From: an archaeon
Lineage (GTDB): Archaea; Nanobdellota; Nanobdellia; Woesearchaeales; GW2011-AR9
DNA: 64,000 nt
Assembly: GCA_002688265.1 (NCBI GenBank)
Contig: NZCK01000007.1
Coordinates: forward strand, 104,739 to 168,738
Reading direction: 5' to 3'
Below are positions 9,482-48,523 of this stretch, one piece after another. Both the position numbers and the translations under genes were made by a program. The notes under the pieces are model-generated. The model saw nothing but the letters and a program-made list of their open reading frames with translations, was not told where the DNA came from and did not search any database. Within the stretch, counting starts at the first letter, position 1, and the number at the start of each line of letters is the position of its first letter.

Positions 9482-10234
9482 ATGTTTACTTTATTCGAAA
9501 CACCAACTTGGTTTGCAGGATTTGATTTAGTGCTAGACACTATTGCATTAATTATTACTTTGATCATTAGCAGTTACAGTTACAAACTGTTCAAATTAAG
9601 TAGTAATCGCAAATTCGGATATTTTAGTTTAGCATTCGCTTTAATGAGTTTAGCATTTCTCTTTAAATTAGCAACTTACACAGTAGTGTACTTTTCAACT
9701 TCAAGGGCACTAGCTGGAGCAACAGTAGTCGCAGTAACAGGATTAACAGGATTAGAAACAGTTAATGTTTCCCTAAGAGATCTGATCTATCGATTTGGAT
9801 TCTTTGTACAAATGGCATCTACACTTGGTGCTTTGCTATTGCTTTATTTGGTTTCACAAAAATCTCGAGACAGATTAAAGAAATTTTATGAAGTTAGTCA
9901 GATTACACTCTTTACTTATTTTGTTATCTTAATCAGTATTGTGGCAACTTTCAAATACACAGTATTTTACCTAACCAGTTTTGTCTTACTAGCATTAATT
10001 GTCCTTAATTATTATCAGAATTATCTGCATAAAAAAACTACCAACAGCAAAAGAGTATTAACAGCATTCATTTGTTTGTTTTTAGCACAACTGTTTTTTG
10101 TGTTTATCTTTGCTGCTAACTGGTTTTACTTCATTGCAGAAATATTAACCTTAGCAAGCTTTGCCATTATAGCTTATGTTTACATGCAAGTAAGTCGCAA
10201 ACAAAAGCCTAGATCTGTTGAGGTGAAAACATAA
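9482..10234 (+). CDS. integral membrane protein (about 7 predicted TM segments)
   Basis: Hydrophobic segments run throughout. GGGGGA SD upstream. The stop overlaps the next start (ATAATG). Confidence 0.6.
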   Translation: MFTLFETPTWFAGFDLVLDTIALIITLIISSYSYKLFKLSSNRKFGYFSLAFALMSLAFLFKLATYTVVYFSTSRALAGATVVAVTGLTGLETVNVSLRDLIYRFGFFVQMASTLGALLLLYLVSQKSRDRLKKFYEVSQITLFTYFVILISIVATFKYTVFYLTSFVLLALIVLNYYQNYLHKKTTNSKRVLTAFICLFLAQLFFVFIFAANWFYFIAEILTLASFAIIAYVYMQVSRKQKPRSVEVKT

Positions 10235-27837: not shown

Positions 27838-28191
27838 CTACAACAACTTCAACTTAGCTGTCAGAAAATCAATTTTGTGTTCGTCATCTGGACCAATACC
27901 TACACAAGTCTTAGTGCCTGGTTCCACTACAGTGTGGCCAGCATCAGTGATTAAAGAAGCTGTGATACCATCATCTTTGGCTTTTTGAAAATAAGAAAGA
28001 AGTTGTTTTTCGTTGTCTACTTTCAAAACAATTTTGGCCATACCTTGGCTACGCCATTCTCTTACTATCGCTGCGTCTGATCTTAAAGTTGCTTCAACAG
28101 AGGCGTGAGCTGCCTGAGCCGCTAGTTTCCCTCGAGGGAGCTTTAAATCATTTCTTACCAAAATTACTTGTTTTAGAGTGTAGTTTGACAT
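27838..28191 (-). CDS. pth2: peptidyl-tRNA hydrolase, archaeal type (Pth2)
   Basis: LVRNDLKLPRGKLAAQAAHASV, then GHTVVEPGTKTCVGIGP. Confidence 0.9.
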   Translation of the reverse strand: MSNYTLKQVILVRNDLKLPRGKLAAQAAHASVEATLRSDAAIVREWRSQGMAKIVLKVDNEKQLLSYFQKAKDDGITASLITDAGHTVVEPGTKTCVGIGPDDEHKIDFLTAKLKLL

Positions 28192-28246
28192 GTAATATTG
28201 GTTAAGGAGAATTTGTTAATAAAGGTTTGGGGAAAATTTAAAATTT

Positions 28247-28412
28247 GTTTATTACGGCTTCGAAATTCTTTGAATTTCTCGGAACACTGCCAACTCACAC
28301 TTCACTAGAAGAATCTGACAGTCGGCCACCCTGTAAGGGACTTCCCCCGGCCTCCTTGAAAAGAGGATAATATTAGTGCTCGTTATTGGCAGTGTGTTCG
28401 CCCGTAATAAAC
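28247..28412 (+). ncRNA. X1: candidate structured ncRNA (unknown family; paralogue of X2)
   Basis: G+C-rich island with nested perfect helices (GTTTATTACGG/CCGTAATAAAC; GAACACTGCCAA/TTGGCAGtgTGTTC) and three hairpins. It shares the core ACTAGAAG..ACCC(T)GTA(A)GGG..CCCCCG with 48362..48523. The strand is tentative. Confidence 0.5.
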
Positions 28413-28449
28413 AAATAGAATAAATTTGAAATTAAAAAATAATAAAAAA

Positions 28450-29226
28450 TTACCAGTGTTGTTCAACCATAGATTGAAAGTGCTTAGCAAAATAAGGCGC
28501 CTCAACCCAAACTGCACTATCATAACTTGGATGAGTACTCTCATCAGTCATCATCATAGTCAAAGATTTGCCGTCAACAACACAATAACGTGAATCAGCA
28601 ACTTTAGTTTCTTTAACATTTGCAATTTCAGAAAAACGCTTAATTAATTTTTTATTAGTTCCAGTTGGAACAGCAATATTAATAGAAACTCCACGAGATT
28701 TAGCTTTTTTCAATTGAGTTAAAAGACTTGCTTCTTTCCTTTGCAAACCATCGCCTGTAGTCATTAAATGAACAGACTTTTTTGCTCCTTTCAATAACAT
28801 ATTCAAATGATCATATACTTTCTCTCGGCCCCTAAAAGAAGCTGATTTATCAGTTGGATCAACTAAACGTACACCAACATTATGCAAAGAATCTAACTCA
28901 GTTAGAACTTCACTATTTTTTAATTTTGATAAGGATCTGTTTTTTTGCTCAGCATCAAACATTACACGCTTTTTTACACGCTCAACTACTTCAGCTGGAG
29001 GAACGGCCAAGTACTTGATAGGTTTTCCTATTTTAACAACAATGAATCCTTTCTTCTCAAGACTCTCAAGAACATCATAGGTACGAGACCTTGGTACATT
29101 TGAAATGTCTGATAATTCTCCTGCTGTTGATACACCACGGCTAAGCAAAGCTACCCATAGTTTACTCTCATAGGAATTAAGACCAAAGTCCTTTAATTTT
29201 CCTAGTAATTCTTGTCCTACAATCAT
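28450..29226 (-). CDS. TrmB-family transcriptional regulator
   Basis: N-terminal wHTH (GLNSYESKLWVALLSRGVSTAGELSDISNVPRSRTYDVLESLEKKGFI) plus a TrmB-like C-terminal domain. Confidence 0.8.
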   Translation of the reverse strand: MIVGQELLGKLKDFGLNSYESKLWVALLSRGVSTAGELSDISNVPRSRTYDVLESLEKKGFIVVKIGKPIKYLAVPPAEVVERVKKRVMFDAEQKNRSLSKLKNSEVLTELDSLHNVGVRLVDPTDKSASFRGREKVYDHLNMLLKGAKKSVHLMTTGDGLQRKEASLLTQLKKAKSRGVSINIAVPTGTNKKLIKRFSEIANVKETKVADSRYCVVDGKSLTMMMTDESTHPSYDSAVWVEAPYFAKHFQSMVEQHW

Positions 29227-48361: not shown

Positions 48362-48523
48362 GAGTAGAAGAAGATCTCACCTGTGGCTCGTTCGGGGCCG
48401 GACAAAATGCTTAATAGTTAACTAGAAGGTGCTGTGACCCGTAGGGTGCGACCCCCGCAACATACTCAAAGAAATTTGTGAAGGCATTTTGAGAATTGGC
48501 CCCCTCAACATCTTTTTCTACTC
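48362..48523 (+). ncRNA. X2: candidate structured ncRNA (paralogue of X1)
   Basis: 14-bp closing helix GAGTAGAAGAAGAT/ATCTTTTTCTACTC with one G:T pair that is a wobble only on the plus strand. Nested helices GGGGCC/GGCCCC and CAAAATGC/GCATTTTG. The core ACTAGAAG..ACCCGTAGGGT..CCCCCG is shared with X1. TTTATAAT lies about 26 nt upstream. Confidence 0.5.

Follow-up and report, generated by a model that had tools for sequence, protein, structure and literature searches.

DPANN archaea have tiny genomes that are thought to be poor in mobile DNA. ERIC/IRU sequences, Correia elements and Rickettsia palindromic elements are imperfect palindromes of 100-170 bp that form long stem-loops when transcribed. 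Among miniature transposable elements with inverted repeats (MITEs), MITEAba12 of Acinetobacter, with its IS5-family partner ISAba12, is 113 bp long, has GGCTTTGTTGCACAAA termini and is flanked by 9-bp duplications (PMC6382973). Archaeal MITEs have been listed for Sulfolobus, Halobacterium, Haloquadratum and Desulfurococcus (PMC10969869). No DPANN MITE turned up in the literature that we searched. Here we describe two palindromic intergenic elements, X1 and X2, in a 64,000-nt stretch of Woesearchaeales DNA (the window; contig NZCK01000007.1, positions 104,739 to 168,738). Our best explanation, to which we give a probability of about 0.8, is that both are decayed copies of a newly recognised IS5-type MITE family of DPANN archaea (Woesearchaeota and Nanoarchaeota).

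Intact MITEs of the family are palindromic units of about 162-168 bp that have no open reading frame (ORF) and lie in intergenic DNA between 9-bp target-site duplications. In the mechanism that we propose, they are mobilised in trans by the DDE transposase that a ~0.9-kb IS5-family insertion sequence encodes. X1 would have entered the spacer between a TrmB gene and pth2, and X2 the spacer between an exchanger gene and a GTPase gene; both would later have lost their terminal recognition nucleotides and the duplication and become fixed in a marine population. Since each arm repeats the other in inverted form, both strands can on paper form a long, near-perfect rod, with a short helix around the motif CCCC-GNAK-GGGG-CGW-CCCCC at its apex.

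A conserved core in related archaea

With the pth2 protein we recovered 80 loci from GTDB genomes (56-79% identity), and those with informative names are Woesearchaeota or Nanoarchaeota. The literal motif common to X1 and X2 is not conserved in these relatives. Through weak sequence matches, we arrived at a family core of 20 nt, CCCC-GNAK-GGGG-CGW-CCCCC, which a regular expression and a covariance model identified at the top of rod-like hairpins in L053, L061, L063 and, in two copies, L027 (relatives are given by locus number). The family is rare, with five matches in 1.17 Mb from the 80 related genomes. A metagenome scan with the core pattern returned at least 120 loci, mostly on contigs that are A+T-rich to mid-G+C, and, among the matches listed, about 100 elements from Woesearchaeota and Nanoarchaeota genomes and metagenomes are rod-like with the core at their apex. 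An element that an earlier note, made from the window's sequence, had known from that window only thus has homologues in related archaea. A scan of viral contigs yielded G+C-rich noise only, and a scanner that combined a regular expression with a helix search was abandoned as neither sensitive nor specific.

On either side of the core, hardly any two copies have the same sequence, and yet the two sides pair. What had been noted for X1 and X2, a conserved core within stems that differ in sequence yet pair, therefore holds family-wide. For the 6-bp helix that encloses the core, we count 151 double-change cells in 84 sequences versus 67 in shuffles, and 81% of cells are paired versus 65% after shuffling. 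The covariation score of this helix is 0.371 versus 0.119, a value that none of 500 shuffles equalled and that lies far above all slid registers. Given such strong covariation beside the core, we conclude that the family is real; covariation alone cannot separate an RNA from single-stranded or cruciform DNA.

The elements are intergenic. They have no preferred orientation with respect to the genes beside them, and no gene or cargo recurs at their flanks: EndA adjoins three loci only, and direct copies flank an EamA transporter gene (L176) and a glucoamylase-like gene (L214) with no transposase involved. Stop-to-stop frames across the core are 42-180 nt long in all copies from A+T-rich genomes, with no consistent start, the exception being one 402-nt frame in the G+C-rich L053. 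Variation in the core does have a 3-nt periodicity, reading P-R-R-G-R-P-P on the + strand and G-G-R-P-L-R on the - strand, but we rejected a small ORF, given frames down to 42-45 nt and the lack of a consistent start.

The core also occurs in a second, "A-type" architecture, a three-way junction with other arms and other termini. A-type elements, found around core matches in L053, L105, L129, L145, L183, L195, L212 and L216, have the layout GGCGGCAGACGG-hairpin-CCCUA-helix-core; examples of their arms are AAAAATCCAGCCAACCAWGGC and CAACAACAATGGC. A-type elements often form convergent inverted pairs 30-60 nt apart, in which the second member has a variant core, for example CCCGTAGGGCGCATCCCC. 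No target-site duplication was seen at A-type elements. If confirmed, this architecture would make the core a module common to otherwise unrelated elements. In L120 (51-971 and 985-1135), and also in L194, an ISH3-family-like DDE transposase gene ends ~50 nt from an A-type element in the opposite orientation; the idea that the A-type element is the terminus of an ISH3-like insertion sequence was rejected, as no inverted repeat links the two. In a separate arrangement, L161 holds a nested palindrome of ~350 nt (919-1290), in which a complete core element lies centrally within an outer one that has GGCTCTGTAGAAAATC termini and, in both of its arms, a variant core of its own, CCCGTAGGGAGCTTCCC.

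Termini, target-site duplications and an empty site

Intact members of the family are 154-168 bp long and have the ends GGCTCTGT(CCC/AGAAA)...ACAGAGCC, of which GGCTCTGT and ACAGAGCC are invariant in eight aligned copies. The earlier note had excluded a transposon on the grounds that X1 and X2 share no termini; this argument fails, since intact members share these termini, 9-bp duplications and ends of the IS5 type. In an automated scan of 55 elements for 7-10-bp direct repeats abutting the ends of the palindrome, 10 of the 55 had such a repeat, versus 0 of 55 in a control with shifted flanks. Six of these repeats are perfect over 9 bp (L137, L165, L173, L186, L191 and L213), and four more are 7-8 bp long. 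Perfect 9-bp repeats are also present in L138 (ATTTTTGGC), in L024, at the second element in L200 and in the contig pair L162/L171, where CCAGGAATG is directly repeated at the two ends and both contigs come from one sample. Repeats of 7-8 bp occur in L103, L170, L172, L192 (8 of 9), L200 and L218.

Elements that are the same or nearly the same are found at different sites. L165 and L213 carry the same element with different duplications, near-identical elements have differing flanks in L144/L162 and in L155/L171, and the L112-type element is found in 3-4 contexts, its duplications being those given for L138 and L192. Recently transposed copies, those with intact duplications, are only about 61-78% identical to each other and form rods of 48-62 pairs (z = -5.5 to -8.1). 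A nearly invariant core and a common hairpin amid such divergence point to a structural requirement for transposition or persistence. The site of X1 is empty in the closest relatives: in L001 and L002 (pth2 79% and 78% identical), TrmB and pth2 are still neighbours, but the spacer between them is short and lacks the element, and X1 is a clean insertion of ~170 nt relative to these spacers.

We also find MITEs with the same GGCTCTGTAGAAA termini and perfect 9-bp duplications whose interiors are unrelated to the core family; one transposase seems to serve several MITE lineages.

L024, 11587-11739: coreless MITE, duplication CGCTTCGTC
L200, ~2285-2460: coreless MITE, the second element in this locus, duplication CTGCTAACA

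A partner insertion sequence of the IS5 type

L120 has the terminus GGCTCTGTAGAAAGTC 86 nt upstream of a 278-aa ORF that matches Pfam DDE_Tnp_1 and, as its best NCBIfam match, the IS5 family (E = 6e-29, below the curated cut-off). This transposase has 439 homologues at E <= 1e-20, mostly on ~1-kb contigs, and those that are named are called transposases and assigned to Woesearchaeota, Nanoarchaeota or Nanoarchaeia. In L120 the insertion sequence has no identifiable right end; complete copies were found elsewhere, on long contigs. In L244, GGGTCTGTAGAAAGTC...TTTCTACTTAGCC has CTGAGGAAC on both sides, and in L241, GGTTCTGTAGAAAGTC...TTCTACTAAGCC is flanked by the duplication GGATTAGGC; L242 has the left end GGCTCTGTAGAAAGT. 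The insertion sequence is ~0.9 kb long, with ends GG(C/G/T)TCTGTAGAAAGT...TTCTAC(T/A)(T/A)AGCC and 9-bp duplications (L244 and L241). It carries the signature of the MITEs, namely GG-N-TCTGTAGAAAGT ends together with 9-bp duplications, its termini (GGNTCTGTAGAAAGT) match the MITE termini, and it occurs in the same archaeal groups.

The leaders of L241, L242, L244 and L120, taken from the left terminus to the start codon of the transposase, each have two hairpins that differ in sequence and agree in layout. The second hairpin reaches the start codon, for example as GGTGGGGA-GGCT-TCCCCCACC-ATG, and looks like a device for occluding translation initiation. The arms GGTGGGGGAAAC and ATTTCCCCCACC of L027a are similar to this start-codon hairpin. 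Within a hairpin of the L120 leader lies a core-like motif, C3-UAGA-G3-CGUUAG-C3; because of this similarity the core may descend from a leader hairpin of the insertion sequence, which we mention as a lead.

Structure of X1 and X2

X1 had been described as an intergenic, almost fully paired and ORF-free element between a TrmB-like gene and pth2, with an 11-bp closing helix, a GAAATTC hairpin, a 12-bp helix and the hairpin CCCT-GTA-AGGG. Sequence, fold and Pfam bear this out, and every one of these helices was located. The full palindrome is the 28247-28412 of that description plus ATTT and AAAT at its ends, with pairing that reaches 28243-28416. Its features are the following.

28243-28416, unstranded: complete palindromic element X1, 174 nt, putative diverged MITE copy
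28243-28257, unstranded: left terminal arm, a 15-nt perfect inverted match that pairs with 28402-28416
28402-28416, unstranded: right terminal arm, 15-nt inverted match, from the fold
28262-28278, unstranded: small 5'-side hairpin GAAATTC-TTT-GAATTTC, from the fold
28282-28293, unstranded: 5' strand of inner helix P1, GAACACTGCCAA, pairs with 28386-28399 in the fold
28386-28399, unstranded: 3' strand of inner helix P1, TTGGCAGTGTGTTC, from the fold
28324-28352, + strand: core module GGCC-A-CCCT-GTA-AGGG-ACTT-CCCCC-GGCC, from the motif search and covariance model R1

The left arm occupies the position of the canonical terminal inverted repeat, and the sequence of this 15-bp repeat is unrelated to the canonical one (GGCTCTGT). 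It includes the 11-bp closing helix GTTTATTACGG/CCGTAATAAAC (28247-28257 and 28402-28412). The small hairpin stands where canonical copies have, between the terminal helix and P1, a bulge or small hairpin on the 5' side, and P1, of 12 bp with a 2-nt bulge, has the canonical counterpart GGTTACTGGC/GCCAGTAACC. The core module, with CCCT-GTA-AGGG at 28329-28339 and CCCCC at 28344-28348, is a degenerate CCCC-GNAK-GGGG-CGW-CCCCC within a 4-bp helix. Positions 28247-28412 fold at -49.6 kcal/mol on the + strand (z = -3.8; 0 of 200 shuffles as stable) and at -53.4 kcal/mol on the - strand (z = -3.3), and 28243-28416 forms a rod of 56 pairs at -54.1 kcal/mol. X1 has no plausible ORF, with stop-to-stop frames of 75-126 nt across the core. 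The flanking genes, both on the minus strand and confirmed by Pfam, encode TrmB (28450-29226) and PTH2 (27838-28191). X1 had been called G+C-rich, which is true in relative terms, with 44-47% against a background of 35%.

The second element lies between genes for a NOG1-type GTPase and a Na+/H+ exchanger, both on the minus strand, and folds into 55 pairs at -50.8 kcal/mol.

48362-48523, unstranded: complete palindromic element X2, 162 nt, putative diverged MITE copy
48362-48375, unstranded: left terminal arm GAGTAGAAGAAGAT, with the subterminal canonical repeat retained
48510-48523, unstranded: right terminal arm ATCTTTTTCTACTC, to be compared with canonical CTTTTTCTACAGAGCC
48430-48462, + strand: core module TGCTGTG-ACCC-GTA-GGGT-GCGA-CCCCC-GCAACA, from the motif search and the covariance model

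The left arm of X2 retains GTAGAA..ATCTCAC (compare GGCTCTGTAGAAAATCTCAC in L186) and has diverged in its outer 6 nt; the right side retains the subterminal repeat CTTTTTCTAC, as in L186. The helix that encloses the core has the family's "U versus AAC" asymmetric loop. Three blocks had been reported as common to X1 and X2, and in X2 these are ACTAGAAG at 48421-48428, ACCCGTAGGGT at 48437-48447 and CCCCC at 48452-48456, with ACCC-GTA-GGGT, GCGA and CCCCC together spanning 48437-48456. The + strand of the window has CCCCCG at just two places, one in X1 and one in X2. The ACTAGAAG block is not significant, with 4 matches where 2.7 are expected, and it falls where members of the family vary. No sequence is common to the arms of X1 and those of X2, and, considered as guides or antisense sequences, the arms have no matches elsewhere in the window.

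We examined ~82 kb of the 209,615-bp TARA Oceans scaffold, that is, the window and 18 kb of adjoining sequence. The proposal of three copies, X1, X2 and X3, holds for X2, which shares the core, but a covariance-model search found no X3 in the window or the adjoining 18 kb. X1 recurs with 0-1 differences in 8 independent marine assemblies and X2 with 0-1 differences in 6, so neither is an assembly artefact. Across the 8 assemblies, the sole polymorphism in the 258-nt TrmB-pth2 spacer is at position 28332, where four assemblies have T and four have C; with C, the CCCT of the core hairpin becomes CCCC, which is nearer to the family consensus yet breaks a U-A pair. Five of the 14 independent contigs that carry neighbouring genes begin inside or within ~50 nt of an element (L225, L229 and L230 at X1; L237 and L238 at X2). 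These breaks probably stem from the effect of inverted arms on the assembly graph rather than from copy number.

Assignment of X1 and X2 to the family

We built a profile hidden Markov model (HMM) from eight duplication-flanked copies, with X1 and X2 excluded. In the window it matches exactly X1 (28260-28391, E = 6e-4, model positions 8-142) and X2 (48375-48458, E = 4.4e-5). Covariance model R1 scores X1, which was in its training set, at 31.7 bits and X2 at 30.9 bits. X1, X2 and the canonical copies also agree in the order of their helices, which runs from a terminal helix of 14-17 bp, through a 5'-side bulge or small hairpin and a helix of 10-14 bp, to a large internal loop and on to a short helix that leads to the core. 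X2 has additional support from ~14 of 20 left-terminal nucleotides and 10 contiguous right-terminal nucleotides.

Several observations weigh against this assignment, or against a MITE as a sufficient account. When the 20-nt core is masked, the HMM finds neither X1 nor X2; the arms are therefore too diverged to be detected by sequence, and membership rests on the core, the architecture and the size. By scan and by inspection, neither element has a detectable target-site duplication abutting its arms, and neither has the GGCTCT/AGAGCC tips, those of X2 having changed from CT to GA and from AG to TC with pairing kept. The ~82 kb of scaffold contains no transposase and no third copy. The core is conserved far beyond what MITE transposition needs: because coreless MITEs with the same termini and duplications exist (L024 and L200), the transposase does not require it. 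The stems covary instead of simply decaying, which points to a constraint beyond selfish spread. Finally, copies upstream of pth2 in four genomes are not explained by random insertion.

MITE duplications fade over time (PMC10969869) and are expected to be missing from old copies, although such an absence does not prove that a copy is old. Because the tips of X1 and X2 have decayed and the duplication is absent, while size, architecture and core fit the family, we regard both as probably old fossil copies that can no longer be mobilised. With neither duplication nor tips, their own insertion is something that we infer, namely that they arrived by the same transposition mechanism as the intact copies. 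The pairing of arms and core would be kept because active copies need it, and it may serve in the synapsis of the ends of a short element, in the formation of a hairpin or cruciform, in silencing read-through, or in keeping insertions harmless.

The elements near pth2 deserve separate description. Core elements lie immediately upstream of pth2 in four genomes (28243-28416 in the window, 5813-5832 in L027, 9819-9838 in L053 and 9718-9737 in L061) and differ in subtype and orientation. In the pth2-centred loci (1.17 Mb), three of the five matches are no more than ~300 nt from the gene, which could reflect an insertion hot spot or retention.

The same neighbourhood holds other features. A conserved small ORF of ~33 aa (consensus ..KG.YFEGSDKKYP...LP.WM..) is divergent from pth2 in L061 (~9790-9890, - strand), where its stop codon lies within the first arm of the element, and is also present upstream of pth2 in L059, L065, L069 and L076, from several Woesearchaeota. 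In L058 and L063, ~300 nt upstream of pth2, there are other long, G+C-rich and apparently structured intergenic segments, that of L063 being ~280 nt long and closed by AAAAAATCGCC/GGCGATTTTTT; neither segment has an Rfam match or a core. Intron-containing tRNA genes of 88-168 nt adjoin pth2 in L053, L057, L058, L061 and L071. In the window, Rfam identifies a 116-nt tRNA gene at 1413-1528 on the - strand (54 bits) that ARAGORN missed and that presumably contains an intron.

Alternative explanations

The conserved centre could be more than a passenger. On this account, the 20-nt core and its covarying helix would be a functional nucleic-acid module that MITEs carry around DPANN genomes. One form of the module may be a folded single-strand signal, a hairpin or cruciform, for bringing the ends of a short transposon together. 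A second may be a protein-binding RNA motif, in which case X1 and X2 might act as small RNAs or 3'-end structures. Overall, we consider the idea doubtful, with a modest chance of being right.

Another explanation keeps the MITE origin of X1 and X2 and adds exaptation, with the hairpin or core now put to use by the host, for instance in a 3'-end or insulator role between co-directional genes, in stabilising mRNA or in supplying a small RNA. Judged from sequence and position, this appears rather unlikely. Archaeal termination needs T-runs and not hairpins, a piece of established knowledge that speaks against this explanation. Both elements do lie between co-directional minus-strand genes, and X2 begins 15 nt past the stop codon of the exchanger gene; after X2, the minus strand has a T6 run, with the GTPase gene's TATA box next. 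In the 6-8 marine assemblies both elements are fixed and hardly vary, but near-identity is expected within one population and is uninformative on selection, and the only polymorphism, at 28332, falls within the core hairpin. The arms still pair almost perfectly though the tips recognised by the transposase are lost, and the compensating changes in X2 (CT to GA and AG to TC) preserve pairing there. Copies directly upstream of pth2 in four genomes would fit a retained function, whereas the closest relatives do without X1. MITE transcripts are known to form stable stem-loops that could act as terminators or regulators (PMC10969869, reviews), and we count this in favour of exaptation.

The earlier note had proposed that X1 and X2 belong to a structured-RNA family, and, in its strongest form, both would be genes of a new small-RNA family, transcribed independently, with the core as a module that binds protein or RNA and with stems kept by selection on the RNA. 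Much of the reasoning behind this has stood: there is a family, it has homologues and its stems covary. The core is kept over the roughly 100 otherwise divergent elements among the matches listed, and the hairpin and C5 run are retained in X1 and X2 despite their decayed termini. Also conserved are two asymmetric features that a simple DNA palindrome would not keep, namely an unpaired CGW-CCCCC and the "U versus RAC" loop. As the earlier note had suspected, no known RNA family accounts for the elements. Against Rfam 15, only two tRNAs in the window reach the gathering score, and in E-value mode there is no match to X1 and a single one to X2, Spot 42 at E = 0.67, which is noise; ten related loci (L027, L053, L061 and seven pth2 loci) give only tRNAs in both modes.

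What tells against RNA genes is the behaviour of the elements as DNA and the lack of a preferred strand. Intact members have transposon termini, 9-bp duplications and ends that match an insertion sequence, their distribution is patchy (five matches in the 80 genomes), the site is empty in the closest relatives, and there are only two copies in the ~82 kb. The elements are randomly oriented with respect to adjacent genes, the two strands have 117 internal G.U pairs each, and the + strand is the more stable in just 30 of 86 elements. No specific sign of an RNA gene was found among those sought (G.U asymmetry, orientation and a promoter inside the element). Beside X1 and X2, TATA-like boxes precede the start codons of pth2 and of the GTPase gene by ~27-30 nt, a spacing that, by established archaeal promoter geometry, fits leaderless promoters of these minus-strand genes. 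We therefore consider RNA genes improbable.

RNA classes were also weighed by their motifs. RNase P, the signal recognition particle (SRP) RNA, 5S, H/ACA and C/D RNAs, circular RNAs flanked by bulge-helix-bulge motifs, 6S-like and Y-like RNAs, and hairpin and hammerhead ribozymes were all rejected, as their defining boxes or loops are absent and Rfam is silent. The exact 20-nt core does occur inside a hammerhead-like GAAAC-helix III-GUC-helix I-CUGAUGAG context in L121 (425-444 and 1108-1127, in tandem 683 nt apart) and L203 (~571-590). The family as a whole is not a hammerhead, since the remaining members lack CUGAUGA/GAAA and half of the members have GAC and not GUC; the L121 and L203 elements are probably unrelated, with a chance match to the core.

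Chance likeness between two unrelated intergenic palindromes, which the insignificant ACTAGAAG block and the lack of common arm sequence would allow, is effectively refuted by the restriction of CCCCCG to X1 and X2 on the + strand of the 64 kb, by the covariance model, by an independent family profile (the HMM) that selects exactly these two, and by their common size and helix order.

Implications

Read as MITEs, the elements are ordinary selfish DNA with an unusually conserved G+C-rich centre, and DPANN archaea gain a widespread MITE family together with its IS5-type insertion-sequence partner. The family also offers a tractable example of a MITE under structural constraint. There is also a lesson for annotation. 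In A+T-rich DPANN genomes, paired intergenic islands of higher G+C content resemble RNA genes and can even pass covariation tests. Before a new RNA family is named, the termini and target-site duplications of intact relatives should be checked.

Comparison with known systems

Structured small-RNA families (tRNA-like RNAs, H/ACA and C/D guides, and SRP helix 6) resemble the DPANN elements in having a conserved apical module on covarying stems, and the GNAR tetraloop of SRP helix 6 resembles the GNAG/GNAU tetraloop closed by G-C pairs. They differ in that a K-turn, ACA and C/D boxes, an Rfam match, a fixed strand and a promoter are all absent here, whereas the DPANN elements have transposon termini and duplications. 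REP/RAYT elements and the PATEs of IS200/IS605 are likewise G+C-rich intergenic hairpins found in either orientation. These, however, are 20-40-nt or subterminal hairpins that are moved as single-stranded DNA by HUH transposases without a duplication, while the DPANN elements have 9-bp duplications, terminal inverted repeats and a DDE partner. An origin from REP/RAYT or IS200/IS605 is ruled out by the length of ~165 bp, the 9-bp duplications and the DDE transposase.

ERIC/IRU, Correia and Rickettsia palindromic elements share with the DPANN family a patchy copy number, and ERIC also has a conserved central region. They differ in their bacterial hosts and in their termini and duplications (TA for Correia), and we found no similarity in a comparison made via Rfam only. 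Archaeal MITEs are, like the DPANN elements, non-autonomous derivatives of insertion sequences that are intergenic and have terminal inverted repeats and duplications; to our knowledge, those listed are unrelated to the DPANN family in sequence and termini.

The likeness to MITEAba12 lies in the details. Both are small (113 bp versus ~165 bp), ORF-free and intergenic, both have terminal repeats that start with GGC (GGCTTTGTTGCACAAA versus GGCTCTGTAGAAAGTC or GGCTCTGTCCCGAA), both show 9-bp target-site duplications in part of the copies only, and both have termini that recur in an insertion sequence of ~1 kb, whose one gene product is a DDE transposase. In MITEAba12, the palindrome comprises only the 16-bp ends, and both the similarity to the parent insertion sequence and the constraint are confined to the terminal repeats. 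The DPANN family, in contrast, is archaeal and palindromic throughout, and its interior carries a conserved G+C-rich 20-nt core and covarying helices.

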